57,303 nucleotides of DNA from an uncultured Dehalococcoidia bacterium (GCA_964617695.1 CAZTYW010000005.1:1-57303), one strand, 5' to 3'. Counted from the stretch's first letter, positions 1-45,843 are shown. The notes: generated by a model from the letters alone, not told the origin. Numbers and translations: made by a program.

Positions 1-571
<571 letters not shown>

Positions 572-5303: not shown

Positions 5304-6254
5304 TTATTTCTTCTTCTCGTCTGGCTGTGGCGGGGATGGGTTGACATAGTTGACCAGTAGCTTCTCCGGTACGAGCTGGGCTATCTCATCAAACCGCCAC
5401 GGACCTTCCTTCTTCCAGTCCCTGGTCACCTTTGTCTCCACCGTCGGCTGAGTCCAGTGCCCCAGTTCGGTCCCCGCGACGAAGAATATCTGCCCGTTCA
5501 CGTCTGCGGCCGCCTCGCTGGCCAGATAGGCCGCGAACCCGGCAAAGTAAGAGGGATCTGCCAGTTCGTTCATCATCTTGTCGAGTTGGTCAGGCGGCAT
5601 GAGGCCGGCCTCGATTCTCTTCTTGATGCCTTCGATGACTTTGTCGTCGGCGGTCATTCTTGTCCATGCCCTTGGACAAATAGCGTTGGACGTGACGCCA
5701 TACCTGCCCATCTCGCGAGCTACGCCGTAGGTCAGGGTGGCGATACCGCCTTTGGCGGCGGCGTAGTTGAGGTGGCTGGGTCCGCCAATGAAAGCTTCGG
5801 AGACGCAGTTGATGATCCTGCCATAGCGCTGTTCCCTCATTAGAGGAGCAGCGTGCCTGATGAGATTGAACGTACCTTTCAGATGGACACCTACTACCTG
5901 GTCCCACTCCTGCTCCGACATGTTCCAGATCATCTTGGGTTTGTCGATTCCGGCGATGTTGCACAGGATATCGATCCTGCCGAATTTATCGACGCAGGCC
6001 TTCACCATGGCCTCTGCGTTAGCAAAGCTGGACACGTCGCCGTAGTGAGCAACGGCATCTGCCCCAAGCCTCTTGCATTCCGCGACTACTTCATCAGCAG
6101 GGGTCCTGTCCGTGCCCGTACCATCCACAGCCCCACCGAGATCACAGACAACGACGTTTGCTCCTTCCTCAGCAAGCGCAATTGCTATTGCCTTGCCAAT
6201 CCCCCTACCAGCACCGGTGACTACAGCGTTTCTCCCCTTCAGTTTATCGGCCAT
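5304..6254 (-). CDS. Short-chain dehydrogenase/reductase, copy 2
   Basis: TGAGRGIG and NYAAAK motifs; clearly paralogous to both neighbours. Confidence 0.9.
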   Translation of the reverse strand: MADKLKGRNAVVTGAGRGIGKAIAIALAEEGANVVVCDLGGAVDGTGTDRTPADEVVAECKRLGADAVAHYGDVSSFANAEAMVKACVDKFGRIDILCNIAGIDKPKMIWNMSEQEWDQVVGVHLKGTFNLIRHAAPLMREQRYGRIINCVSEAFIGGPSHLNYAAAKGGIATLTYGVAREMGRYGVTSNAICPRAWTRMTADDKVIEGIKKRIEAGLMPPDQLDKMMNELADPSYFAGFAAYLASEAAADVNGQIFFVAGTELGHWTQPTVETKVTRDWKKEGPWRFDEIAQLVPEKLLVNYVNPSPPQPDEKKK

Positions 6255-25146: not shown

Positions 25147-26196
25147 ATGATCAGTATCGACGGTGCGGCGAAATCGGGTTCTGGCACTATTCTGCGCCTG
25201 GCTGTGGCTCTGTCCAGCCTGTTGGGCGAGGAACTGCATGTCTGGAATATACGGGCGGGCAGGGACAAGCCTGGGCTCAGGCCCCAGCATGTGCAGGTTG
25301 TCTTGGCCTGCGCGCGAGTTTGTGGAGGCACTGCCGAAAAAGTGAGTGTGGGGTCAAAAGAGGTATTCTACAGGCCCGGCAAGCACATCAGCGGAGGCTC
25401 GTATGCATGGGACATAGGAAGCGCCGGCTCGACTACCATGCTAGCCATGAACCTGATGCTGCTGGGGTGCTTTGCTGATGAGACGTTTACCTGCAGGATC
25501 TCGGGAGGACTGTTCCAGGATTTCGCGCCCACGGCCTATCACACGCAGTACGTGCTGATTCCCACGCTAAGCAAGATGGGCGTAAATGCCAGGCTCAAGG
25601 TGAAGCAAGCCGGGTACGTGCCGCAGGGTGGGGGTGTTGTTGAGTTGCAGGTAGAACCGCTCGCAGCAAGCCTCGCCCCGCTGGTGCTTGCTGAGCAGGG
25701 CAAGTTGAGGAGGATTGAAGGCATTGCTCTGTCCTCTCATCTCAGAGAGCAGAAAGTGAGCCACAGGATGGCTGACGAGTGCCACAAGCGACTCGGAGAT
25801 AAGGCACTCAATGCCAGCATAGAGAAGAGATATGATACCAAGGCCAGCCAGAAAGGGGCCGCCCTGAGTGTGTGGGCTCAGACCGATACGGGATGCATCA
25901 TCGGTTCCGACAGGGCGGGTACGCCGGGCAGGAGTTCAGAAGAGATCGGTCGGTACGTTGCACGCAATCTGCTCCAGGAATTGAAGAGTGGTGCGTGCGT
26001 GGATAGATACCTGGCGGACCAGCTGGTTCCTTACTGTGCTCTAGGTAGCGGGGTGAGCCGGTACGTCATCTCACACATGACAGACCACGTGGAGACGAAT
26101 CTCTGGCTGGTCGACAAGGTTCTTGGCGCACGGACGGCCGTGAAGGACAACGTGGTGGAGATACAGGGGATAGGCTTGGCGCCAACCCGGTGCTGA
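25147..26196 (+). CDS. rtcA: RNA 3'-terminal phosphate cyclase
   Basis: IDG..KSGSGTILR, KPGLRPQH, GYVPQGGG, DRYLADQL and TDHVETN (catalytic His) motifs. Confidence 0.92.
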   Translation: MISIDGAAKSGSGTILRLAVALSSLLGEELHVWNIRAGRDKPGLRPQHVQVVLACARVCGGTAEKVSVGSKEVFYRPGKHISGGSYAWDIGSAGSTTMLAMNLMLLGCFADETFTCRISGGLFQDFAPTAYHTQYVLIPTLSKMGVNARLKVKQAGYVPQGGGVVELQVEPLAASLAPLVLAEQGKLRRIEGIALSSHLREQKVSHRMADECHKRLGDKALNASIEKRYDTKASQKGAALSVWAQTDTGCIIGSDRAGTPGRSSEEIGRYVARNLLQELKSGACVDRYLADQLVPYCALGSGVSRYVISHMTDHVETNLWLVDKVLGARTAVKDNVVEIQGIGLAPTRC

Positions 26197-27511: not shown

Positions 27512-27994
27512 GTGACGGTTGAAACAGACAGGACACGGCTAATCGAGCATATACTGGACCTTAACATGAAACTGGAGCAACTGGAGCAGGCGTTGCGTCC
27601 AGTTGTCCCCAGAGAGTGGCTGAGCGCTGATGTCACCATGACTCAACTGAGGGTTCTGCTGATTCTGTTCAGGGACGGGCCCACTCGCATGAGCGGCATT
27701 GCCTCCGGCCTGGGGGTTAGTTTTGCCACAGCCACGGGTATTGCAGACCGCCTGGTTGAGAGGGGTCTCGTCATCAGAGAGAACTCGGTTGAAGACCGTC
27801 GCGTGGTGGTTTGCCGGTTGTCCCCTCAGGGAGAGAAGCTGATGAGCCGGCTGTGGCGGTCAGGTCAAGAGCAAATAAAGCACATGCTGGAGAAGATGAC
27901 GCTTTGGCAGCTAGAGGTCGTCGCCCGGGGGACACAGATTTTCATCGATGCAGCCAAATCTTTGCAGGGCGATTCTCAAGGAGGGAAGAGCTAG
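27512..27994 (+). CDS. MarR family transcriptional regulator
   Basis: VTMTQLRVL, ATATGIADRLVERGLV and DRRVVVCRLSPQG motifs. Confidence 0.92.
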   Translation: MTVETDRTRLIEHILDLNMKLEQLEQALRPVVPREWLSADVTMTQLRVLLILFRDGPTRMSGIASGLGVSFATATGIADRLVERGLVIRENSVEDRRVVVCRLSPQGEKLMSRLWRSGQEQIKHMLEKMTLWQLEVVARGTQIFIDAAKSLQGDSQGGKS

Positions 27995-28280: not shown

Positions 28281-29039
28281 TTACCGGGCAACCAGTCCTC
28301 CGTCCACAACCATTGAGTGACCAGTGACGAACGAAGCTGCGTCAGTGCAAAGCCACACGGCTGCCTCGGCTATCTCCTCTGGTTCACCCAGCCTTCCCAC
28401 AGGGTGCATGTCTCTGTAGACCTCGGCCATCTTGGGGCGAGCGGCGATTACGCGGTCGATCAGGGGTGTGTGAATGACGCCCGGACATACCGCGTTGATC
28501 CTGATCCCAGAGGTGGCATACTCCAATGCTGCCGCCTTGGTCAGCCCAATGACCCCGTGTTTGCTGGCAACGTAGATGGGGGTGCCCTGGAAGCCCACCA
28601 GCCCTGCCACAGAGGAGGTGTTGACGATGGCCCCGCTACCCTGCGTCAGCATCTGCTGAATCTCGTATTTCATGCACAGCCATACACCTTTGAGGTTTAC
28701 GGCCATTATCCGGTCCCATTCTTCCTCCGTGGTCTTGGCCGTTGGGACTCGACTTCCTCCGATACCGGCATTATTGAAGGCGCAGTCCAGGCGTCCATAT
28801 GCGTCGACGGCCCGGCTGACCATTGCCTCGACTTCGTCGGACCGCGATACGTCGGTCTTGAAGAACACTGCTTCACCCCCAGACCCCTCGATCATTCGCG
28901 CCGTCTCCTCGCTGCCCTCAACCAGGATGTCAGCTATGACCACCTTCGCACCTTCTCTGGCAAAGGCCAGCGCGGCGGCGCGTCCGATTCCTGAGCTGGC
29001 ACCTGTCACCAAAGCAATCCTGCCATCCAGCGATTTCAT
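28281..29039 (-). CDS. Classical SDR oxidoreductase
   Basis: MKSLDGRIALVTGASSGIG, NNAG and YVASK motifs. Start re-called at 29039 with GGAGG RBS. Confidence 0.92.
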   Translation of the reverse strand: MKSLDGRIALVTGASSGIGRAAALAFAREGAKVVIADILVEGSEETARMIEGSGGEAVFFKTDVSRSDEVEAMVSRAVDAYGRLDCAFNNAGIGGSRVPTAKTTEEEWDRIMAVNLKGVWLCMKYEIQQMLTQGSGAIVNTSSVAGLVGFQGTPIYVASKHGVIGLTKAAALEYATSGIRINAVCPGVIHTPLIDRVIAARPKMAEVYRDMHPVGRLGEPEEIAEAAVWLCTDAASFVTGHSMVVDGGLVAR

Positions 29040-29351
29040 GCCGATACCTCCATGCTCTGTGTTTATGTCTGGGTTGAGCCGACCCACATCAGAGCGGATT
29101 GCGCCCGCCGGCTCACACCGTCGCCAGTTGCTGTTGTCGCTTTCTGAAGCATTTCCGAATCCATTGGCTGGTTCCAGTGACCCGAAGCGGATCAGGCGCT
29201 CCGAGGGCGTTCCCTCGGCGGCGCTGGGATGGCCCGCGAACTGCCACCCGCCTTGGTGGGGCGGGCCGCTATTACGAATAGCCTGGGGTCCGAAGCGTCC
29301 AGGGCCGAAGGTTTCCTGGGTTGGGATGGGCTTGAGCGTACTTGCCAAATG

Positions 29352-30803
29352 TCATGAGCTGTGAATGTGTCGGTCCTGGTTGCGCTGGAATCGGCAGTAT
29401 TCTGTCGTCCTCTTGACAGCTCTGGCTGCTCTGTCGAAAGTCGGGAAGCTTGGTATTCCGGCTTCTATCAGCCTCGGTCTTATCTGGGACGCCTGCGCTT
29501 CCAGTTGTCCTGCGATCAGGACGACGGCGAAGCTCTTGGCACACGTTGTTCTGAAGTCGCTCATGATCCCGAGCAGTTCGTCGAGATAGGGGGGATAGTA
29601 TTCCCAGATCTGAGATAAGAACGGGATGCACAGCTCAAGCACCACGACGTCGATGTTGTCATCCTGGCTCAGGATGTCCAGGGACCTCACCAGGTCCCCG
29701 GTGGAAAGCACGTTCCACGATATGTCGAGGGGATTCAGGTAGCTTCCGCCTATGATGTTGAAAAAGGAGGCAAACTCGCGGTAGGAACGATCGGTGAGGA
29801 GAGGGACCGACAGACCTTGCTGGGTGAAGGCGTCGGCTATGACCACCGACTGCCCCCCACTATGTGCCATCAGCGCCACTCTGTTGCCCGAAGGCGGGTC
29901 AAGGTAGAGCAACGCTTCTACAGCGTCAATCATTTCCTCCAGGCTGTCGACCCCGATCGCCCCGCACTGCTTGATGACGGACTCCCACATGACCGCAGGG
30001 GACGCCAGGGCGCCGGTGTGTGACGCGGCTGCGCGAGCCCCTTCCATAGTCTTGCCTCCAATCCAGACTAGCACCGGTTTGTTGCTGGCCGTCTCCCTGA
30101 GGCACTCGAAGAATCTCCTGCCGTCCTTGACCCCTTCTACATACATGCCGATAATTGTGGTTTCCTCGTCATTGGCCAGGTACTCGAGGTAATCCGTGCT
30201 GTCAAGGATCGTCCCGTTACCGAAGCTCACAGACTTGCTCACCTTGATTCCGTGAGCCGCTCCCACCAGGCTGAAGAAAATGGCATGTGTGCCGCTTTGG
30301 GAAATGAAGCCGACGGGCCCTCCTTCGCCCCAGTACTGGTTGATATCGTGTCGCAGCCCGATCTTCGGATTGAAGATTCCCATGCAGTTGGGGCCGATCA
30401 GGTTGAGATTGGCCTCACTGGCCATGGCGGCGATTTCGCGTTCCAGCCTTGCTCCTTCCTCGGTGTTGGTCTCGGAAAAGCCGGAGGTGAACAGAGCCGC
30501 CCCGGCCACCTGTTTCTTGATGCAGTCGCCGATGATCTTTGGGGCTGCTGTCCTCGGGACCGCAACGATCACGTAGTCGACCGGCTGCTGAATATCGAGC
30601 AGGCTGCTGTAGTTCTCGATGCCCAGGCCCTCAATTCCGGGTATCTCGTTGGGGTCGATCTGAACTGAGTACACTTCCCCTTTGAAGTTGCTCAGGCATC
30701 GGAGCCACATGTAGTCGTTGGCCAGCTTGTCGCCTACGACGGCGACTGACCGTGGATTGAAAGCCCTATCGAGTCGTCTGGCTGTTTGCAGCAAGGGCTT
30801 CAC
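29352..30803 (-). CDS. Acyl-CoA synthetase (NDP-forming) alpha-type subunit: CoA-binding plus ligase domains
   Basis: NPRSVAVVG, GPNCMG, SQSG and ASHTGALA (phospho-His) motifs; no ATP-grasp domain. Confidence 0.88.
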   Translation of the reverse strand: MKPLLQTARRLDRAFNPRSVAVVGDKLANDYMWLRCLSNFKGEVYSVQIDPNEIPGIEGLGIENYSSLLDIQQPVDYVIVAVPRTAAPKIIGDCIKKQVAGAALFTSGFSETNTEEGARLEREIAAMASEANLNLIGPNCMGIFNPKIGLRHDINQYWGEGGPVGFISQSGTHAIFFSLVGAAHGIKVSKSVSFGNGTILDSTDYLEYLANDEETTIIGMYVEGVKDGRRFFECLRETASNKPVLVWIGGKTMEGARAAASHTGALASPAVMWESVIKQCGAIGVDSLEEMIDAVEALLYLDPPSGNRVALMAHSGGQSVVIADAFTQQGLSVPLLTDRSYREFASFFNIIGGSYLNPLDISWNVLSTGDLVRSLDILSQDDNIDVVVLELCIPFLSQIWEYYPPYLDELLGIMSDFRTTCAKSFAVVLIAGQLEAQASQIRPRLIEAGIPSFPTFDRAARAVKRTTEYCRFQRNQDRHIHSS

Positions 30804-31151
30804 CTCTGGTGCTTACAGGATTTGCCTGCCGGTCCCCTCGGGCCTATCGCCATCGGTCGGCGCTGACCGGTCGGTGGCCGTTTGCCACCCATCCGCTGTT
30901 CTTTGACCGCGGATGGCGAGCGCTATGGTGGCGCTTGCGGGGCCGTCCACTGGCCGAAGACGTACTTGGGCTATTATAGCATTGGGCGGCTTGCCGGGTC
31001 ATGGCCCGCCCGTTTGTACCCCGCGGCTGGTCCTGGTGGCGACGGCGGCGGATGTCCTCCCGTGAGATGTCTGGGAACACGCGCCCGCTGTTTCCAGACG
31101 ACGCACGCGTTGTCTGGGGGCGCGCAGAAGAGTCCGGAGCCTCTTGACGCC

Positions 31152-32534
31152 TCAGCCTGGCCTGGTGAACCTGGAAATCAGGTCTTCAAGCTGGAGCAGC
31201 AGGGTCATGTCGCCCTCTATCTTGAGTTTGCCCTCTGTCCAGGCGTTGAAGCGTTCAAGCTCTCCCCTCTGGATGGCAGCCCAGTCCTCGGCTGACACGA
31301 TGAGCGTGCAATTCGGGTTCTCCACGGTGCCCTCGTGGCGAGAACCCTCACCCCGATCACATAACAGGTACCAGTCGCTGCCGCCCGTTCCGGTGAGGTG
31401 AAACTGCACGGTGACGGTCACATCCTCGACTCTGGTGGCCTGCCTGGGTGGGGCTCCGGGGGCCGGCAGATCGAGCAGGGTCGCCAGCCTTTGGGTAGAG
31501 ACGTTGTTGTGCTCGGTGGCATCTCCTGGCACGGCGATCCCCATCTTCTTGAAGTTCTTGAATATCTTGAGCATGATTATCCCGAACCCGAAGGCTGCCA
31601 GGACTTCGTTGTAGAACAGGTTCTTGACCTTGAACCCGGTGAGCTCCTCGTAGCGCTGCACGGTCTCTTCCCTGTTGGGAGTGCCCTCCAGGCGGGGAAT
31701 CCCGTATCCAATGGTGTGCTGCCAGTCGAGGAAGAAGAACCAGCCCAGATCGGCCTCAGGGTCTCCCAGGTAGGCCATCTCCCAGTCCAGCACGCCCACC
31801 ACGTCAAAGTTGTCCTGGTTGTACATGGTGTTGGGTATTCGGGGGTCTCCCCAGCACAGAGTCACCCTCTCCGGCTCATACCGGTGCTCCTTCAGCCATT
31901 CCAGGGCGGCTTCAAGGATGGGCTGAGATTCCTGAGGGGACTCCTTCACCCAGTTGAGGTACCGCTCGTTGTATTCGAGCCGGCGATCAATTGGGTCTGC
32001 GCCTGCCTTGGGCACGCCCAGGAAGGAGAACCCCAGACTCTTCCAGTCGAGTTTGTGAATTCTGGCTATGGACTCGAGGGTGCCCCACCACATCTTGGCC
32101 CGCTGTTCGGGGGTGGCGTTGAAGAACACCCCGAAGGAGTGATAAGGGGGGTACTCGGGTGGAACAACTCCCTCCAGCTTGCCCATGACATAGAACTGAC
32201 TACCGAGTATGGTCTCATCGTTCTCCAGCCACAGGACGCTGGGCACGGCGATGCCCTCCGGCTGCAGCAATTCCATGGTACGGAACTGCGCACTCAGGTC
32301 GTATTCGGGGAATATCGGGTAGTCCTTGGGTGGACAGCGTAGTACCATCCCCTGGCATCTGGGAGTGCCGGCCTCCTGCCAGCTCACGTCAAAGACGAAG
32401 CTCTCATTCGACAGCCCGCCCCCCGACCTCTCCAGGTTCGATACGGTCAGGTCCTGTGCCTGGGGCATCTGCTTTTGCAGCCAGGACGCAATCTTGACCT
32501 GCGCCTCGGCCAGGTCTATGTGACGTGCCTGCAT
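31152..32534 (-). CDS. APH-family phosphotransferase (ACAD10/11-kinase-like) fused to an SCP2 sterol/lipid-binding domain
   Basis: GGLSNES, FYVM, CWGDPR and LDWEMA motifs. C-terminal VQFHLTG.GG.DWY...NAWTEGKLKIEGDM..LLQL matches SCP2. Confidence 0.88.
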   Translation of the reverse strand: MQARHIDLAEAQVKIASWLQKQMPQAQDLTVSNLERSGGGLSNESFVFDVSWQEAGTPRCQGMVLRCPPKDYPIFPEYDLSAQFRTMELLQPEGIAVPSVLWLENDETILGSQFYVMGKLEGVVPPEYPPYHSFGVFFNATPEQRAKMWWGTLESIARIHKLDWKSLGFSFLGVPKAGADPIDRRLEYNERYLNWVKESPQESQPILEAALEWLKEHRYEPERVTLCWGDPRIPNTMYNQDNFDVVGVLDWEMAYLGDPEADLGWFFFLDWQHTIGYGIPRLEGTPNREETVQRYEELTGFKVKNLFYNEVLAAFGFGIIMLKIFKNFKKMGIAVPGDATEHNNVSTQRLATLLDLPAPGAPPRQATRVEDVTVTVQFHLTGTGGSDWYLLCDRGEGSRHEGTVENPNCTLIVSAEDWAAIQRGELERFNAWTEGKLKIEGDMTLLLQLEDLISRFTRPG

Positions 32535-32587: not shown

Positions 32588-33682
32588 TTAGTATCCCTGG
32601 TAGCCATACCTGGGATACTTCCCAACGACAACCATCTCGACGATGCCGTAGCCGACCTCATCGCCGCAGCGCATCTCGCACATGACGTCGTCGATGAAAG
32701 AGACGTCACGTATCACATTCGGGTCGGTCAGGTCCAGCTTGAGACCGTCCAGGAAGTAAGGGCCCATCCACAGCCCGTGGACAAATCCCTGGTAGCCGAA
32801 ATAGCCACCTGCCTTGATGTAGCAAACGCTGAGCGGGCGCACCGATATCTCTATTCTGGAGCCATCGTCGGCGTTGAGAGCGACCTCACCTCCATTGATC
32901 TGCCGTACGTCGGAGCGGAAGCGGTAATTGTGTTTGACGCTGGTCACCTCAAGCTCTTCTTTCCCGCTTCCACAGGGATAGAAAATGCCGCCGCTGAAAT
33001 GGCGGGACTTCTCTTCCCACGTCTCCCGTGTGTGGTAGGTGGCACCCCACTCCTCGAACTGCGCCACGAGCATGTTATACAGGTAGCCCTCCGGGATGTC
33101 GCCGGGCTGCACCCCCGTTTCCGGCACGCCGCCGCCCCGCCTGATACCCCATGAGTGATCCCTTTCAGCCCGCCAGCTATCCCTGTCGATCTGGTACGTC
33201 TTGCCTTCGATTTTGGCCGAGCCGAGTGGCCTTCCTACCTGGAAATAGCGCTTTATGTTCTCCTCCATCCTGCCGCGAAAACGGGCAACCTGTGATTCCT
33301 CCTCGTGGGCGTACATGGTCGCCTCAAACTCAATGTCGTAGCTCAGCCCGTGCTCGTTGTCGTCCAGGACCCACCGCACCTTCCGAAGCGGTTCGAGTAT
33401 CTCGTAGGAGAAGGGGCCTACCCTGACCTCGTCTACCTGGGGACGAAGTTCGCGGGATGCCCTGACGTTATACTGTGTCTTGCCTTCGACGGCGCAGCAG
33501 GCAAAGGCGTCGATGACGTTGCGGTTTGGGTAGAACCCGAAGCCGGACACGAGTTGCAATTTCCCGGAGATATCGTGGGCACAGAACCATAGCCTCTCTG
33601 TCCATTCCCGGGCGCTGGTCTCGACGCTGTCGAAGGTAGCTACGATTTGATGGCACGGAAGCTCGTCGTACTTGGTGAGCAT
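32588..33682 (-). CDS. Hypothetical beta-rich protein of the type found beside APH kinases in lipid/steroid degraders
   Basis: WTERLWF, GFYPNRNVIDAF and ERDHSWGIR motifs; GGGGG RBS; operonic with the APH-SCP2 gene. Confidence 0.7.
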   Translation of the reverse strand: MLTKYDELPCHQIVATFDSVETSAREWTERLWFCAHDISGKLQLVSGFGFYPNRNVIDAFACCAVEGKTQYNVRASRELRPQVDEVRVGPFSYEILEPLRKVRWVLDDNEHGLSYDIEFEATMYAHEEESQVARFRGRMEENIKRYFQVGRPLGSAKIEGKTYQIDRDSWRAERDHSWGIRRGGGVPETGVQPGDIPEGYLYNMLVAQFEEWGATYHTRETWEEKSRHFSGGIFYPCGSGKEELEVTSVKHNYRFRSDVRQINGGEVALNADDGSRIEISVRPLSVCYIKAGGYFGYQGFVHGLWMGPYFLDGLKLDLTDPNVIRDVSFIDDVMCEMRCGDEVGYGIVEMVVVGKYPRYGYQGY

Positions 33683-33934
33683 AAGGACCCCCTTTTTTGT
33701 CGAAGATGTTGCCGAGACAAGGTGTTGCGTCAGCGTCTCAGCGCAACTACCGGACTAGCGTGGCCGTCGGCCGATGTGGTTCTGTCTTCGTCCATTCTCC
33801 GGTGCCGCTGACAGTACCTGCATCAGGCCCGACTTCGCCATGCGGACGCAGGACCGGTCGTGCATGGAGTATGGATGCCACTGCGCAGAAGCCACGATCT
33901 CATAAAAGCAAGACTGGCTGCCACCGTTTCGCTA

Positions 33935-34022
33935 ACAGCAGCAGCCCAGCCATCATAGCCTGTCGGCCTTAGACCCGTGGCTTTGCGCCCCCTGATTTGT
34001 CAGGGTTTGCCCTTTTCACCGT
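33935..34022 (-). ncRNA. Cyclic di-GMP-I (GEMM) riboswitch
   Basis: Minus strand AAGGGCAAACCCTGACAAATCAGGGGGCGCAAAGCCACGGGTCTAAGGCCGACAGGCTATGATGGCTGGGCTGC shows the GGCAAAC, GCAAAGC and CTAA...TATG receptor motifs. Ends approximate. Confidence 0.88.
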
Positions 34023-34057
34023 TGCCTATTAACTTGTTGCGCCCTCTACGCAGTAGC

Positions 34058-34087
34058 GTTATACCGCCTCCAGCTAGCAAAAGTCAA
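34058..34087 (-). promoter_or_regulatory. sigma70 promoter driving the riboswitch leader
   Basis: Minus strand TTGACT-N18-TATAAC, about 30 nt upstream of the aptamer. Confidence 0.7.
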
Positions 34088-34117
34088 GTCCTATAAGCTG
34101 TGGGCCGCAATGTCGGA

Positions 34118-34768
34118 TCAGATAAGATTCAAGAGGTCAGTGGGCTTCTCAATCAATGCCCTGGCGCCGCTGGCTGCAAGTTCGTCGCCACTGCGAAAGC
34201 CCCACAGCGCGCCGACGGGGTACATGCCAGCCGCGAGGGCGGTTTTCATGTCTGTGTCTCCGTCGCCCAGATAGATGAATTTGCCTGGCGGGATATTGAG
34301 ACGTTCTGCTATCTGAAGAGCAGCCGCAGGGTCGGGCTTCCTTGGGATGGAGGCCTGGGCGCCTATCACCGGCGAGAACTCCCAGCATGGCAGAAGGTGA
34401 GACACAGCCAGTCTGGTGAAATTGTCCGGCTTGTTGGACAGGATGGCCATCTTCACGCCCCTGGCGGTCAGGCCGTCCAGCAGTTCCGGGATGCCGTCGT
34501 AGGCGCGGGTCTTGTCTGCCCAGCGCTTGCGGTACTCCTCACGAACAGCGGCGACCAGTCTGACTACCGTGACCGTGTGGCGCTGGTCATCCGGGAGCGC
34601 CTGGAAGGCCAGTTCCTCGACGCCGTCGCCGATGAAGTACTTATAGGCCTCGACGTCATGCCCCGGAAAGCCGAGACGGTCAAGCCCGATGTTCACGGAG
34701 TCGGCTATGTCTTCCAGTGTGTCCAGAAGAGTGCCGTCCAGGTCGAACACAACTGCTCTATACTTCAT
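34118..34768 (-). CDS. HAD-family hydrolase (phosphoglycolate phosphatase-like)
   Basis: [18 protein letters not shown] and GDGDTD motifs. Confidence 0.9.
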
Positions 34769-35003
34769 GCAGACACCGTTGCTGCCTGACGCGAGTCATG
34801 GCTGGCTGGACTATTGGCCTGGCTGGGTGGCCGGGACAGATTCTAGCTTTTGTTCTGGCAGTTGTCCAACCCGTCGCTTGCCTGGTCGGCGGAGGCTCGT
34901 TCGGGTGTCCTTTGAACGAGGGTTCAGTTTGCGTTTGCTGGCACCCTGCTGTGCTATAATCAACGCCATATCTCCCCACGGGACAGCGCCTGGAGGAAGG
35001 AAG

Positions 35004-35696
35004 ATGAACCCTGACCACATCATCTATGTCAGTGACCTGCACAAGACGTATGACACCGGCAAGTTCAAGGTTCACGCCCTGAGGGGCGTCGACTTCACCG
35101 TAGACCGGGGAGAAATGGTAGCCATAATGGGGCCCAGCGGCTGTGGCAAGACCACTCTGCTCAACTGCCTGTCTGGGTTGGATGATATTGATCGGGGCGA
35201 CGTGATCGTCGAGGGTGTGCGGCTTCATGAGATGTCAGACAGTGTGCGTACGGACTACCGGGCTCGCCGCATGGGGTTCGTCTTCCAGTTGTATAACCTG
35301 TTGCCGGTACTCAGTTCTGTGGAGAACGTGGAGTTGCCCCTGCTGGTCTCCGGAGTGCAGCCGGCGAAGAGTCGCCGTCTGGCCCTGGAAGCTCTGGACA
35401 TGGTGGGGCTCCCGGAGGTGGCAGACCGGATACCTGCTGAGCTATCCGGGGGGCAGCGCCAGCGGGTCACCATAGCCAGGGCCCTTGTCAACCGCCCGGC
35501 CATAGTATGGGGCGACGAGCCCACCGGGGACCTGGACAGTGAGACCACGGCCGATATCATGGATTTGCTTTGCCGGTTGAACAAGGAGAATCAGCAGACG
35601 TTTGTCCTGGTCACTCACTCCCGTGACGTAGCGGAGCGGGCTGACCGCATCGTCAGGATGCGGGATGGGCTCATTATCGGGGAAGGCCTGGCGTGA
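35004..35696 (+). CDS. ABC transporter ATP-binding protein (LolD/MacB-like)
   Basis: [16 protein letters not shown] and GDEPTGDLD motifs; start re-called to ATG 35004. Confidence 0.93.
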
Positions 35697-38653
35697 ACGA
35701 ACTCTTCGGCATCTCAATCACCACCATAGCTCAGGTCTTGCTGGGCATATTCGTCGTCGTTCTGGCGCTGGTAGGGGTGCTGGCCTGGCGAAATCGAATA
35801 ATGCTCAAGCTGGGCGTGCGGAATATCCCCAGACGCCGTGCCCAGACGGCTCTGATCATCGTGGGCCTCATGCTGAGCACGGTCATCATCACCAGCGCCT
35901 TCGGCACCGGTGATACCATGGTCCATACCATCCGGTCGCTGGCGGTGCGCTCTCTGGGCAGCACTGATGAGGTTGTCACCGGTGGCAGTCTCGGTGCTGC
36001 GGGTAGCTTCCCGTACTTCGATTCCGTGCAGTTCGAGGAGCTCCGCGATGGTCTTTCCGCTGATGACAGGATAGACGGCCTGCTTCCTGCCATCCAGGAG
36101 GCGGCGCCTGTGGTGCCAACGGGGAGTGCCCAGGATGCTTCCCGTGTCACAGTGTTCGCACCTGATGCCGAATACTATTCGGGTTTCCAGGAGATGACTA
36201 CGGAGCAGGGCCAGGTGGTCACACTGGATGACCTGGGTGACGACGGGGTGTACCTGGACAGGGACGCAGCCGACGACCTTGGGGTGGGGCCCGGGGACAG
36301 GCTCCTGGTCTACCTGGGACAACAGCCTGCCGAAGTCGGCTTGAGCGCGATTGTAGAGGAGACTTCAGCAGGCACCGTATCGGTGATGGTCATGCCGCTG
36401 TCCAGGGCTCAACAGCTCCTTGGCAGAGAGGGGCAGATCAACGCCATACATGTGTCCAATAGGGGTGGATCGGTAGAAGGGGCGGCACTCAGCGATGAGG
36501 TCACAGCCGGACTGGAATCTCTTCTCGAGGGCACCGGCCTGGGAGTTGAGCCGGTGAAAAAGGATGCGCTGGAGGGCGCGGATACAGCGGGCAGCGTGTT
36601 CACCACAATATTTGTCGGATTCGGGTTGTTCTCTATCACCGCGGGTCTACTCCTCATATTCCTGGTCTTTGCCTTGCTGGCTGCAGCGCGGAAGTCGGAG
36701 ATGGGCATGGCACGGGCGGTGGGGACCAGGCGACACCACCTGATTCAGATGTTCGTGTTTGAAGGCACGGTCTACGACCTGGGTGCTGCGGCAGTAGGGG
36801 TGGTTCTGGGTGTACTGGTGACCTATGCGATAGCCGGTATCATGGCCAGCGCCTTTGGCAATACTCCGCTGGACCTGGCCTACCACTTTGAGCCCACGAG
36901 CCTGGTAGTGGCGTTCACTCTGGGTATGCTGGTCACCTTTTTCACCGTCGCCGCGGCGGCCTGGAGGGTCAGCCGGCTGAACATAGTCAGGGCCATCAGG
37001 GACATCCCCGAGCCTCGGCTGGAGAGGGTTGGGCGGCGATGGCTGTTCCTGGCGCTCGGACTGCTCTTTGCGGGACTGATGTTGGTCTTCGGTGGACTCG
37101 GCACCGAACAGGCCTCGCCGCTGTACCTGGGGGTCTCGCTGCTCATCATAGGTCTGGCGGTGTTGCTGCGCTGGATGGGGCTGAGTGAAAGAAGAGCGTT
37201 CACCCTGGCAGGCATCGCCCTTCTCGTCTGGTCGCTCCTGCCCATAGACGTGGTCAAGTTCTTGAGCCAGCTTGGGATGGGGATTGAGATGTTCTTCCTC
37301 ACCGGTATCATGATGGTCCTCGGCGCCGTGTGGGTGGTCACCTACAACATGGACCTTTTGCTGCGCCTGCTCACGTTTGTCCTGGGGAGGTTGAAGGGTG
37401 CAGTGCCGGCATTGAGGACGGCTATCGCCTATCCGGCGAACAACCGCCTGCGCACTGGACTGACGCTGGCCATGTTCTCACTGGTGATATTCACCATTGT
37501 CTTCATGTCGGTAGTGGTCACCGCCAGCACAGCCGCTCTGGAAGACGTCGAGTCCTTCTCAGGCGGCTACGACATTTGGGGTACTGTCAGCTACAACAAC
37601 CCGATTCCAGACATGCAGGCCGCTATTGCCGCGGCCCCTGGGCTCGACTCCGATGACTTTGAGGCTGTTGCCAGCCAGGCAGTGGTACCTCTGGAGGTGC
37701 GCCAGTCCGGGGTTGCAGGTGCCGAGTGGAACGACTATGTGGTGCAGGGCGTAGATGACGTGTATCTGGATACTAACGGTTTCGATTTCGCTGTCATGGC
37801 TGCGGACTACGGTTCCGCCAGTGAGGTGTGGCAGGCGGTCAAGGAGAACCCCGGACTTGCGGTGGTCAGTGCTGACGCTGCGCCGTCGCGAAGCCAGTTC
37901 GGTGTGACAGTGGGCGGGCCGGGCTTTCGCCTGGAAGGGGTCTACCTCGATGATGACGTCATGGCTCCCACAGACGTTGAGGTCAGAGGAGCCTTCACGG
38001 GTATAGACACGGTCGTCACTGTCATTGGCGTTCTCGAGGCGGTAAGCTTCAACTTCGGCATTTACGCTTCTCAGGAGACTCTATCTGGGGCAGCCGGCAT
38101 CGCGGTTCCGCCGACGACATACCTGTTCAGGCTGAGGGAAGGGGTGGACGCGGAGGCGACAGCCGAGGCCATCGAGTCTGAGTTTCGGGCAAACGGCATG
38201 GAGGCAGTGTCGATCGAGGAGATGCTTGATGAGGCCCGTGAGACCAGCTTCACCATCAACTCCCTGCTCCAGGGCTTCATGGGGCTTGGTCTGATCGTCG
38301 GCATTGCTGCCCTGGGCGTGATCAGCACCAGGGCAGTGGTGGAGAGGCGCCACGAGATAGGCGTCCTGAGGGCCATCGGCTATCAGCGACGGACAGTACA
38401 GCTCAGCTTCCTCCTGGAGTCTTCCTTCGTGGCACTCCTGGGTGTCTTCATCGGGGCGGCACTGGCGCTGGCCCTGTCGAGCAATGTCATAGACTTCTTG
38501 AAGGAGGACATACAGGGCCTGGAGTTTCAGATACCCTGGCTTCAGACGTTTGTTATTGCTGCGGTAGCGCTGGTCGCTTCCCTGCTGATGACCTTCCTCC
38601 CTGCGCGGCAGGCATCCAGGACCTGTCCTGCTGAAGCTCTGCGGTACGAGTAG
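35693..38653 (+). CDS. FtsX/MacB-like ABC exporter permease (duplicated architecture)
   Basis: Two RKSEMG/RRHEIG..RA.G motifs, multiple transmembrane segments and a C-terminal PAEALRYE. Confidence 0.9.
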
Positions 38654-41537: not shown

Positions 41538-41564
41538 TTAGCAGTTTAGGTGGGAGAGTGCTAA
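41538..41564 (+). promoter_or_regulatory. CIRCE element (HrcA operator)
   Basis: TTAGCAGTT-N9-GAGTGCTAA versus consensus TTAGCACTC-N9-GAGTGCTAA, directly before hrcA. Confidence 0.92.
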
Positions 41565-41566
41565 AA

Positions 41567-42598
41567 ATGAGCGCCCAGACTACCGATCTTCCGCAGAGAA
41601 GGGCCACCATCCTGAGAGTTATCGTGGCTGAGCACATAGCTTCGGCTGTTCCGGTGCCGTCGGAGAGCATTGCTCGTGGCTATTCGCTCGGTATCAGCCC
41701 GGCGACCATAAGGCACGAGATGGCGCGCCTGGAGGAGGAGGGCTACATCAACCGCCCGCATACTTCTGCCGGAGGCGTGCCGACCGACAGGGCCTATCGT
41801 TATTACGTGGAATGTCTGGTTCAGGAGTCCAAGATCGGCCGGAAGGACCAGATGGCCATCCGGCGCTTTTTCGAAGAATCGGAGCAAGAGCCTGAAGCTT
41901 GGGCGCGCCTGGCAGTGTCAATCCTCACGGAGAGACTTGAAAGCATCGCCGTGGCTACGGTGCCACGCGCCGCAGTGTGTCGCTTCAGGCACGTGGACCT
42001 GGTAGCGCTTCAGGAGTTGCTGATCCTGCTGGTACTGGTGCTCCAGGAAGGGATGGTCAGGAAGCGGATTCTGGCTCTGAGTCAGGCTATGTCTCAGGAT
42101 GAGCTGACTGCCTCGGCCAACAAGATGAATGCCTCGTATCAGGGCCTGAGCTGCCGGCAGATCGGTGCCAGCGACGTTGACCTGTCTCCGGTTGAGCAGG
42201 GAATCAAGCATACTGTGATGGGTATGATGCAGACGGAGGAGAGACAGCAGAACGAGCAGTTCTATCTTGACGGGTTGCGATACTTGATCAGTCAGGCCGA
42301 GTCCATCAGGGAACGGAGTCTCCTCAGCCTGGTGGAAGCCATTGAGGAGAGGACCTTACTGAGTAACCTGCTGAGGTCCCTGGGCGACATATCGGGGACC
42401 AGGGTCACCATTGGCAACGAGAATCGGGAGGAGGCTCTCCAGGGATGCAGCGTCATCCTGAGCAACTACGGGGTTGATGAGAGGAGGGGGGCCGTGGGTG
42501 TCATCGGGCCCACGCGAATGCCCTATGGCCGCGTCATTCCGACCGTGGACTTTATCTCTTCAGTGTTGAGTGATATGTTCGGCAGGATATATACCTGA
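41567..42598 (+). CDS. hrcA: Heat-inducible transcription repressor HrcA
   Basis: SPATIRHEM..LEEEGY..PHTSAG.VPT...YRYYV and GVIGPTRMPY motifs. Start could be GTG 41558. Confidence 0.96.
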   Translation: MSAQTTDLPQRRATILRVIVAEHIASAVPVPSESIARGYSLGISPATIRHEMARLEEEGYINRPHTSAGGVPTDRAYRYYVECLVQESKIGRKDQMAIRRFFEESEQEPEAWARLAVSILTERLESIAVATVPRAAVCRFRHVDLVALQELLILLVLVLQEGMVRKRILALSQAMSQDELTASANKMNASYQGLSCRQIGASDVDLSPVEQGIKHTVMGMMQTEERQQNEQFYLDGLRYLISQAESIRERSLLSLVEAIEERTLLSNLLRSLGDISGTRVTIGNENREEALQGCSVILSNYGVDERRGAVGVIGPTRMPYGRVIPTVDFISSVLSDMFGRIYT

Positions 42599-42612
42599 AG
42601 TCAGGGGTTGCC

Positions 42613-43239
42613 GTGGAGGACGAACAAGAGAAGGCTGAGGGAAAGCTGGAGACCGAGGCAGGCGAGGCAGATTCGCTGAGACAGGCTCTCGACGAGGAAA
42701 AGGCCAGGGCGGAGAGGTACCTGGATAACTGGCGCCGGGCTGAGGCAGACTTTGACAACTACAAGAAGCGCGTTGAGCAGGAGAAAGCAGACAGCAGCAA
42801 GTTCTCTAACATGGTGGTCATCATGGGCCTGCTGCCCGTGCTCGACGACTTCGAGAGGGCCTTCGATTCGCTCCCGGTCAAGCTGGCCGGGCTGACCTGG
42901 ATCGAGGGCATTCGGCTTATCCACCGCAAGCTCCGGGCCACCCTGGAAGCCAGGGGGCTGATGGAGATCAAGTCTCTCGGCGAACAGTTCGATCCTGCCG
43001 TTCATGAGGCGGTCACGCAGGCAGAGGGGGAGGAGGGGAAGGTCATCGAGGAGCTGCAGAAGGGCTACAAGCTGCATGATCGAGTAATCCGGCCTGCCCT
43101 GGTGGTGGTGGGCAAAGGCATCGAGGAAAAGAAGGGAGCAGAGGAGGTTGCCGAGGAGCAGGAGCCAGTGACGGAGGTGGAGTCCGTAGGGGAGGTGGCC
43201 GAAGAGAAATCCGGCGACGCACCGGACAACGCGGGTTAA
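42613..43239 (+). CDS. grpE: Nucleotide exchange factor GrpE
   Basis: [30 protein letters not shown] and [14 protein letters not shown] motifs. Confidence 0.96.
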
Positions 43240-43253
43240 GGGAGAAGAGAAGT

Positions 43254-45155
43254 ATGGCACGAGCTGTCGGAATCGACCTGGGAACAACTTTTAGCTTGAT
43301 AGCTGCAATGCAGGGCGGTGAGCCTGTGATCATTACTACTGCCGAGGGGGAAAGGCAAATGCCCTCGGTTGTTGCCGTCAGCAAGACGGGTGAGCGTCTT
43401 GTTGGATGGCTGGCGAAGCGGCAGGCGATCACGAATCCTGAGAACACCATCTACAGCATCAAGCGTCTCATGGGGCGCAAGTTCAAAGACGCCACGGTGC
43501 AGGAGGACATCAAGCGGCTACCTTACAAGATTACCGAGGCGCCAAACGGGGACTGCCGCGTGGTGATGGGCGACAAAGAGTACAGCCCGCCTGAGATATC
43601 AGCCATGATACTTCAGAAGCTCAAGGCAGATGCGGAAGACTATCTGGGTGAGCCCGTCACCGATGCCGTAGTCACCGTACCTGCTTACTTCAATGACAGC
43701 CAGCGCCAGGCCACTAAGGATGCCGGCGCCATCGCCGGGCTGAACGTACTGCGCATCATCAACGAGCCAACGGCTTCTTCGCTGGCCTACGGGCTCGACA
43801 AGAAGGATGAGGCCACCGTCGCCGTGTACGACCTCGGTGGTGGCACCTTCGACATTTCTCTTCTCGAGATGGGCGAAGGCACCTTTCAGGTCAAGTCAAC
43901 CAGTGGCGATACTCATCTGGGTGGAGATGACATTGATCAGCGCATCATGGACTGGGTGTGCGATGAGTTCAAGAAGGAGAGCGGCATTGACCTGAAGCAG
44001 GACAGGATGGCCCTGCAGCGGGTGAAGGATGCTGCAGAGAAAACCAAGCGAGAGCTGTCGACCATGCAGCAGACCGAGATAAACCTCCCGTATATCACCG
44101 CCGACGCTTCCGGGCCCAAACATCTCAACATGACACTGACGCGGTCCAAGCTGGAGCAGTTGGTCATGGAGATAGTCGAGAAGAGCATCGGCCCCTGCCG
44201 CCAGGCGTTATCGGATGCCGGGTTGAAGCCGGCGCAGATAAACGAGGTGATCCTGGTGGGCGGTCAGACCAGGATGCCGTTGGTCCAGGACAAGATAGCC
44301 CAGTTCTTTGGCAAGGAGCTGCGCAAGGGGATCAACCCTGACGAAGCTGTGGCCCTGGGGGCAGCCATTCAGGCTGGCGTGCTCAAAGGGGACGTGAGGG
44401 AGGTATTGCTTCTTGATGTCACCCCTCTCACCCTGGGCATTGAGACCCTCGGCGCCGTGGCCACCACGCTCATTCCGCGCAACACCACTATTCCCACCAG
44501 CAAGAGTCAGGTGTTTTCCACTGCGGCTGATAACCAGCCCAGCGTGGAAATCCATGTGCTCCAGGGGGAGCGGCCCATGGCTGGTGACAACAAGACCCTG
44601 GGGCGTTTCATGCTTGACGGCATTCTCCCGGCGCCGCGCGGCCTGCCCCAGATAGAGGTCACATTCGACATCGATGCCAACGGCATCCTCAACGTGAGTG
44701 CCCGGGACAAGGGCACCGGCAGGGAGCAGAAGATAACCATCACCGCCTCGAGTGGCCTGAGCCAGGAGGAGGTTGAGCGTATGAAGCGGGAGGCGGAGGA
44801 GCATGCGGCTGAGGACGCCAGGAAGAAGGAAGACATCGAGACCCGCAATACTGCCGATACGCTGGTCTACACTGCCGAGAAAGTCATACGGGAGCAGGGA
44901 GATAAGGTGCCCGCTGACTTGAAGCAGCAGGCTGAGGGAAAGATCGCCGCTGTCCGGTCGGCGCTGCAGGGGCAGGATACCGAGTACCTGCGCCGCACGG
45001 TTGAGGAGCTTTCCCAGGTTATGCAGCAGATGGGCGCTGCGGTGTACCAGCAGGCAGGGCCACCGCCCGGTGCAGAGGGACAGCCCGGAGGGGAAGGACA
45101 GCCTGGCGGCGAAGGCGGCGAGGGTACGGTAGAAGGCGAGTTTCGGGAAGTGTAG
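43254..45155 (+). CDS. dnaK: Chaperone DnaK
   Basis: [29 protein letters not shown] and [11 protein letters not shown] motifs. Confidence 0.99.
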
Positions 45156-45569: not shown

Positions 45570-45643
45570 CGGGGTGTAGCGCAGCCTGGTAGCGCACCTG
45601 AATGGGGTTCAGGTGGTCGGAGGTTCAAATCCTCTCACCCCGA
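45570..45643 (+). tRNA. tRNA-Pro(GGG)
   Basis: CGGGGTG acceptor stem pairs with CACCCCG; anticodon arm CCTGA-ATGGGGT-TCAGG; GGTTCAAATCC T-arm. CCA is not encoded. Confidence 0.97.
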
Positions 45644-45843
45644 CGTTCAATTTACACTTCATTGCAGACATTTTGCCAACATTTCCGAATGATTGGTTTT
45701 CGCTCGTATTGATGCGGCCAGCCACGCCACCAGACGCCTGACAATTCTCGCATTAGGTCGTGCCATTTTTCGGGAGGCTGATTGAAAAGGCCATCTAATA
45801 GAACGGGCTAAACGTCTAATATATCTGAGGGAGGTGTGGAAGA

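Follow-up and report, generated by a model that had tools for sequence, protein, structure and literature searches.

Riboswitches for c-di-GMP mainly control motility, pili, adhesins and secreted proteins and, in Geobacter, extracellular electron transfer. The prototype of class I (Rfam RF01051) is Vc2 of Vibrio cholerae. Its two hairpins with a receptor motif and its G, A and C contacts recur in an RNA element of an uncultured Dehalococcoidia bacterium, encoded on a stretch of 57,303 nucleotides that was analysed as a whole and is called the window here (contig C5 of G000, a 1.95-Mb, ~90% complete metagenome-assembled genome). With the c-di-GMP-I class at large the element shares a full-length model match, a position in a 5′ leader and an expression platform based on an intrinsic terminator. 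It differs from that class in the CAAA loop of the window copy, the catabolic gene context and the host. The GEMM-Ib riboswitches of Geobacter for 3′,3′-cGAMP (e.g., Gs1761) have the same fold, belong to the same Rfam clan and, as is proposed for the window copy, control a physiological programme beyond motility alone. However, they carry an A at position G20 and are accompanied by a Hypr GGDEF enzyme with Ser at the selectivity site, whereas the window copy has G and the sole GGDEF protein of its genome has Asp. No link of a c-di-GMP riboswitch to Dehalococcoidia or Chloroflexi, or to genes of the phosphosteroid-lyase type, was found in the literature searched.

The genes downstream of the element have a described counterpart in Sterolibacterium denitrificans. 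The 25-hydroxysteroid kinase (25-HSK) of this bacterium is a 43-kDa enzyme of the phosphotransferase family which, with 25-phosphosteroid lyase (25-PSL), converts the tertiary alcohol at C25 of the cholesterol side chain into an alkene by ATP-dependent dehydration (PMC8449060, PMC11061730). The first gene behind the element (gene 1) aligns to 25-PSL and the kinase domain of the second (gene 2) falls into the same phosphotransferase family. Unlike the S. denitrificans pair, gene 1 is only ~30% identical to 25-PSL and gene 2 carries an extra SCP2 domain. Genes 1 and 2 are adjacent in the window, whereas a 2021 paper reported no lyase candidate beside the 25-HSK gene of S. denitrificans. Riboswitch control of the S. 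denitrificans kinase/lyase system is not reported in the literature searched. Rv3168 and Rv3169 of Mycobacterium tuberculosis form the same kind of kinase-plus-partner pair. To our knowledge, that pair has neither an SCP2 fusion nor a riboswitch, and both of its proteins are functionally uncharacterised.

Aptamer, terminator and leader

The c-di-GMP-I (GEMM-I) aptamer lies at 33937..34021 on the minus strand. It matches the Rfam covariance model RF01051 at 34021..33937 over model positions 1-87 of 87 with 73.8 bits, against a gathering score of 35 (E 1.2e-12, calculated for the whole window), and RF01051 scores above the variant models of the clan. The first-pass annotation had called a GEMM-I aptamer here and proposed this search, which bears the call out. 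Within 33600-34200 there is no other Rfam match, even at E<=10, and no second RNA element in the leader. Six GEMM-I copies are present in the genome, of which the window copy is the top RF01051 scorer. The loop of its first hairpin is CAAA rather than GNRA and the second hairpin carries the receptor CUAAG...UAUG, so that the earlier reading of an unusual P2 loop with an intact tetraloop receptor is correct in both parts. The loop is YAAA in all seven cassettes compared (six from the genome and one from G006), AAAA in three copies of G008 and UAAA in one copy of G058; a first loop base other than G thus recurs together with the receptor.

The pairing of the aptamer is supported by covariation. 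In an alignment of the six genome cassettes with the one similar copy from G006, 95.1% of cells are paired, compared with 23-47% in slid controls, and four pairs show compensatory changes on both sides. P1 of the window aptamer is weak (about -0.2 kcal/mol), with G-U at three of its five pairs. Compared with its paralogues, the window copy has C-to-U changes (CUGCCACC to CUGCUGCU) whose pairing survives as G-U wobbles in the aptamer state as well as in the terminator state. These changes account for the remark in the first-pass annotation that the hairpin is 'GU-rich' and leave P1 thermodynamically marginal.

The terminator hairpin and its U-tract occupy 33902..33951 on the minus strand, as located by a scan and by folding. 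The scan gives GGCTGCTGCTGTT/AACGGTGGCAGCC, which folding extends to 17 bp with three G-U pairs and a free energy of -25.6 kcal/mol. The 5′ arm GGCUGGGCUGCUGCUGUU (33951..33934) is followed by the loop AGCGA (33933..33929), the 3′ arm AACGGUGGCAGCCAGUC (33928..33912) and the U-tract UUGCUUUUAU (33911..33902), which is the interrupted DNA tail TTGCTTTTAT. The 5′ arm starts with the last 15 nt of the aptamer, which comprise the 3′ strand of the second helix (outer part), the C92 equivalent and the 3′ strand of P1; the overlap with the 3′ strand of the aptamer had been noticed in the first-pass annotation. The terminator helix is kept in the seven cassettes, with 94.3% of cells paired as against 26-71% when the partners are slid.

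Upstream, a promoter of the sigma-70 type, also claimed before, spans 34058..34087 on the minus strand and consists of a -35 box TTGACT (34087..34082), an 18-nt spacer (34081..34064) and a -10 box TATAAC (34063..34058). A promoter scan limited to sigma-70-like sites reports no promoter-like site in 33500-34300; it requires a T at position 6 of the -10 box and therefore overlooks TTGACT/TATAAC. Both boxes are unchanged in all six cassettes of the genome and nearly identical in G006 (TTGACA/TATAAG). Transcription is predicted to start near 34051, and a short 5′ leader (34057..34022) separates the promoter from the aptamer. Behind the terminator a long leader of 219 nt (33683..33901, minus strand) extends to the ATG of gene 1 at 33682. 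The ribosome-binding site is probably GGGGG at 33692..33688, which puts it ~245 nt away from the aptamer. The distance to the ATG, put at about 250 nt in the first-pass annotation, is 255 nt from the end of the aptamer and 229 nt from the 3′ end of the hairpin (33912). The leader sequence occurs nowhere else in the genome, and shuffled versions of it fold equally well (z about 0). A 26-codon ORF that begins in the U-tract was dismissed on inspection of the sequence only; it has no ribosome-binding site. An ancestral promoter within the leader was likewise rejected, as blastn and MAFFT find no homology between the intergenic region of the window and the upstream regions of the orthologues, and the leader is unstructured.

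The aptamer and the terminator compete for the same strand. The minimum-energy fold of aptamer plus platform contains the terminator (-52.9 kcal/mol), compared with -35.3 kcal/mol when the aptamer is enforced, and for five of the six genome cassettes folding predicts the terminator form as the minimum. In the nearest-neighbour model the terminator state is thus more stable by ~17 kcal/mol, and switching must depend on the energy of ligand and tertiary contacts and on co-transcriptional kinetics. Kinetic control is usual for riboswitches of such design. Alignment column 80 (A or G) has two partners with which it co-varies, column 44 of the aptamer (U-A, U-G, C-G) and column 108 of the terminator (three A-U and three G-C pairs), which is the pattern predicted by two mutually exclusive functional helices. 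The terminator takes up the 3′ strand of the aptamer itself, so that a bound ligand can act only against termination, which amounts to an ON design; the competing platform sits upstream of the co-oriented gene 1. Judged by sequence and predicted folding, the element is probably a functional class-I c-di-GMP riboswitch that acts as a transcriptional ON switch in front of the lyase-kinase genes.

In such a switch transcription would start from TTGACT/TATAAC. When the ligand is lacking, the hairpin at 33951..33912 would capture the last 15 nt of the aptamer and, together with the U-tract, end transcription near 33902. Once it has bound c-di-GMP, the aptamer would retain these 15 nt, the terminator would be unable to nucleate and RNA polymerase would pass through the 219-nt leader into genes 1 and 2. 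Read-through may extend to the genes for a CoA-ligase-like protein and a short-chain dehydrogenase/reductase (SDR) further downstream.

Ligand and the six cassettes of the genome

In this class one guanine of c-di-GMP is recognised by G20 and the other forms a pair with C92, whereas natural cGAMP binders have an A at position 20 (PMC6140456). At model positions 11, 38 and 83, taken as the equivalents of G20, A47 and C92, the window aptamer carries G, A and C; the Vc2 numbers were mapped onto the model by reasoning from the junction layout. The G reported in the first-pass annotation at the G20 equivalent is therefore present. The genome has one GGDEF protein (C50:110-1465, 451 aa), with an N-terminal domain, an intact GGDEF motif and an RxxD site five residues upstream. 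Its substrate-selectivity position is occupied by Asp, in INDTLGHSIGD, in a register set from the N339/S348/D374 spacing of the Hypr enzyme GacA. The possibility that it is a Hypr (cGAMP-making) cyclase was rejected, as both an alignment with solved cyclases and the GacA spacing place this Asp at the selectivity residue. The sole HD-GYP gene lies on the same contig (C50, ~2426-2914), about 1 kb downstream of the GGDEF gene. EAL and PilZ domains were not found in the assembly (~90% complete, 1.95 Mb).

The three contacts and the lone GGDEF protein with Asp make c-di-GMP the expected ligand. The earlier prediction of c-di-GMP over 3′,3′-cGAMP was drawn from the G20 call, with which the A47 and C92 equivalents and the canonical diguanylate cyclase now agree. 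This single canonical cyclase would supply the messenger and its HD-GYP neighbour would degrade it; the principal receptor in the organism may be RNA.

The other five GEMM-I cassettes of G000 are at C8:38718-38803 (+), C8:32088-32172 (+), C1:48748-48832 (-), C21:10250-10334 (+) and C9:28382-28466 (-). The YAAA loop and the receptor recur in all six, as does a terminator whose start lies within the aptamer, and the leaders past the terminator are also long in the five paralogous cassettes (about 125-213 nt). One of the five precedes two acyl-CoA dehydrogenases with thiolase-like and ChsH2-like OB-fold proteins, one a hydantoinase A/B, ketone-carboxylase-like set and one three DUF6125 proteins with an SDR; the remaining two are found in front of an Fe-S protein and an ABC substrate-binding protein. 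Recent duplication of the cassette was rejected as an origin: the aptamers are 75-87% identical to one another, about as distant as from the copy in another genus (G006). The C9 copy has a G for A at the A47 equivalent (GCGAAG) and the lowest score (48.8 bits). It resembles the c-di-GMP-I-GGC variant class of Rfam, and its ligand may differ.

Related loci and alternative readings

The first-pass annotation had suggested examining whether related genomes keep the same genes behind the riboswitch. The link is absent at every orthologous locus examined. There is no GEMM-I upstream of the orthologues at nine reference loci (at the gathering score; four also at E<=1) or at the 13 metagenome loci with readable upstream DNA among 14 scanned by Rfam. 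The reference loci are 57-79% identical in gene 1, and the metagenome loci include fragments that are 82-94% identical. Same-family orthologues in G001, G007, G013, G014, G009, G012 and G005, a set that may partly coincide with the reference loci, have no riboswitch by whole-genome search. In whole-genome searches of 80 relatives, GEMM-I copies lie on contigs other than those of the orthologues, and the ON-type cassette is absent altogether from the genera, other than that of the window, in which orthologues occur. The window genome is the sole representative of its own genus among the genomes compared. Orthologues of the acyl-CoA dehydrogenase operon in other genera are also on contigs without GEMM-I. 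The hydantoinase-cassette link is common to the window genome and G006, which belongs to another genus.

A conserved palindrome, TGTCAGAGAATCTCTGACA (variant TGTCAGGCAATCCCTGATA), is found upstream of gene 1 orthologues at L007:~5840-5870, L008, L009, L102 and L113. It takes the position of the riboswitch in the window and is probably the operator of a protein regulator. An operator-like palindrome in some orthologous loci as against a riboswitch cassette in the window genome would represent regulatory turnover.

Most other GEMM-I copies of the same taxonomic family are of a 75-nt form with a separate terminator (L082-L096, genomes G001, G002, G007, G010, G013, G015, G018, G020 and G021). This form has a GNRA loop and no receptor, and the 5′ arm of its downstream terminator repeats the 5′ strand of P1, which looks like an OFF design. 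Same-family copies precede type IV pilins, an Ig/PKD-like surface protein and a sensor kinase. The two ORFs tested after the 75-nt form (L090, L095) are type IV pilins (N_methyl), and most other 75-nt copies precede ORFs of similar size. A weaker GEMM-I in G012 (L097, G012:C55:480-11200; 47.8 bits) precedes an FAD-dependent oxidoreductase; its contig also has a fragment like gene 1 at 3.3 kb and a full paralogue at 9.2 kb downstream of the GEMM-I. In distant Dehalococcoidia, copies with a GAAA loop precede CAP, PsbP-like proteins and a GH18 chitinase, as well as a histidine kinase, a LuxR regulator and a PNPOx-like enzyme. From these gene neighbourhoods the catabolic gene set appears largely particular to the YAAA-loop ON class of the window genome and G006.

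Several other explanations of the locus have to be weighed against an ON switch. The aptamer and terminator could be real while genes 1 and 2 are transcribed mainly from an unrecognised promoter in the 219-nt leader, in which case the riboswitch would add little or only give a short terminated RNA. The length and lineage specificity of the leader are compatible with this, as are the restriction of the scan to sigma-70-like sites and the orthologous loci that function without a riboswitch. Yet that scan shows no promoter-like site in 33500-34300, long leaders are shared by the five paralogous cassettes, and there is little other reason for a full cassette of promoter, aptamer and terminator to stand immediately upstream on the coding strand, so that a leader promoter is considered unlikely. 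It is distinctly improbable that the element works in another mode, as an OFF switch, at the level of translation or through RNA processing instead of anti-termination. A stabilised aptamer can only disfavour a terminator whose 5′ arm is its own 3′ strand, the overlap is kept in seven cassettes with three-way covariation, and the ribosome-binding site is ~245 nt away; these points weigh against the strong preference of the nearest-neighbour model for the terminator and the example of the OFF-type reading of same-family copies with a separate terminator.

The aptamer might instead sense another ligand, such as 3′,3′-cGAMP or another dinucleotide, as some GEMM-I variants do. This is very improbable, since the contacts of the window copy are G, A and C and cGAMP binders have A at position 20, RF01051 beats the variant models of the clan, and the only GGDEF protein has Asp rather than Ser or Thr at the selectivity position. 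Its appeal lies in the CAAA loop in place of GNRA, a gene set atypical for c-di-GMP and the C9 paralogue, whose G at A47 means that binding-site variation exists in the lineage. That the window copy is a decaying or non-functional version of a cassette working elsewhere in the genome can hardly be credited: its weak, G-U-rich P1, the interrupted U-tract and a link unique to the window genome would fit decay, but none of the other five copies scores as high with the covariance model, every change relative to the paralogues keeps pairing in both aptamer and terminator, and its promoter boxes are intact.

Genes behind the switch and a possible regulon

If the element is an ON switch for c-di-GMP as preferred here, the first gene under its control would be gene 1 (32588..33682, minus strand), which encodes a 364-aa protein of the Rv3169 family (DUF7064). 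It scores 333 bits with NF053593 (NCBIfam Rv3169-family; cut-off 150) and aligns end to end with 25-PSL (PDB 9FZN/9G2I/9G4C; residues 2-359 against 5-360 of 362), with E 1.2e-38 and 29.9% identity over 351 positions. Gene 2 (31152..32534, minus strand; 460 aa) encodes an APH-family kinase with a C-terminal SCP2 sterol-carrier domain (Pfam APH and SCP2). Its best PDB match is 9FSG ('aminoglycoside phosphotransferase-like protein', E 2e-42), and it also matches the Rv3168 structures 3ATS/3ATT (E 2e-39), the kinase domain of ACAD11 and SCP2 chains. By analogy, ATP would serve the kinase to phosphorylate an alcohol, from which the lyase would then eliminate phosphate. The kinase-lyase chemistry of S. 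denitrificans makes a hydrophobic alcohol a reasonable substrate, and the most probable task of the two enzymes is to remove water from an unactivated alcohol of a hydrophobic compound resembling a steroid or isoprenoid. At 30% identity the substrate of the lyase need not be a steroid.

Some relatives have two or three tandem lyase-like paralogues around one kinase gene (L014:6001-10752, G006:C82:45906-48159), and the lyase-like gene reaches up to six copies per genome, which suggests that the family has diversified for several substrates. A molybdenum hydroxylase of the S25DH type, which makes the tertiary alcohol, would be an expected companion of such a lyase. Molybdopterin oxidoreductase domains of any subtype give 15 matches in the 1.95-Mb genome, none of them within the operon. 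Fifteen are many for a small genome and some could be anaerobic hydroxylases; one match carries an in-frame TGA (C31:4942-6474).

The extent of the operon is less certain than its beginning. The gap between gene 2 and gene 3 is 348 nt and contains a promoter-like site at 31002..30973 (30973..31002, minus strand), ATGACC-N18-TATAAT with a TG-extended -10 box (TGCTATAAT), which is a consensus match only. Gene 3 (29352..30803, minus strand; 483 aa) resembles the alpha part of NDP-forming acyl-CoA synthetase (Pfam CoA_binding_2 and Succ_CoA_lig; TIGR02717 at 320 bits, under its cut-off) and may be co-transcribed with genes 1 and 2. Gene 4 (28281..29348, minus strand) encodes an SDR (adh_short_C2 241 bits, NF004818 383 bits). 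The position of its start codon is uncertain, since the longest ORF opens with ~100 aa to which no family can be assigned; a Pfam search of the N-terminal 100 aa gives no match. The module of lyase(s) plus kinase is the only part of the operon conserved in relatives. Together with the promoter-like site before gene 3, this conservation leaves only genes 1 and 2 securely under the switch. The lipid-catabolic operon of the first-pass annotation is supported and becomes more specific, gene 1 being a homologue of 25-phosphosteroid lyase and gene 2 an APH-SCP2 protein, but secure control does not reach beyond them.

The suggestion in the first-pass annotation that a second messenger may govern the catabolism of hydrophobic substrates gains indirect support from the other five cassettes, which share the design and stand before further catabolic or uptake operons. 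A wider reading is possible but tentative. In it, c-di-GMP works mainly through RNA in this lineage and the six ON-type cassettes form a regulon that turns on the uptake and anaerobic breakdown of hydrophobic substrates resembling steroids or isoprenoids. Its members would be the kinase/lyase module, the ChsE/Ltp2/ChsH2-like acyl-CoA set, the ketone-carboxylase-like set, DUF6125 with SDR, the Fe-S protein and the ABC binding protein. Such a regulon would couple a lifestyle signal, e.g., attachment to particles, directly to substrate use, and its role would differ from the motility, adhesion and secretion targets of GEMM-I in related genomes. The riboswitch class is already known; the proposed regulon and the sparse c-di-GMP wiring of the host are unusual, with six switches before catabolic and uptake operons, and without the usual protein receptors, in the small genome of an uncultured, environmentally abundant group. 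Should they respond as predicted, the switches would show a second messenger directly gating the use of carbon substrates. They would also offer a handle on the diet of Dehalococcoidia other than organohalide respirers and on the role of the widespread kinase-lyase pairs of the Rv3168/Rv3169 type.

The surroundings of the operon hold further recognisable features. A gene for a MarR-family regulator (27512-27994, +) is convergent with the SDR gene, and an RNA 3′-phosphate cyclase (RtcA) is encoded at 25147-26196 (+). On the other side, genes for an ABC ATPase and a large FtsX-type permease (34689-38653, +) are divergent from a HAD phosphatase gene. The 5′ third of a 16S rRNA gene (551 bits) occupies 1-571 (-), cut by the contig end, and tRNA-Pro (GGG) at 45570-45644 (+) follows the hrcA/dnaK heat-shock group (41558-45155, +).
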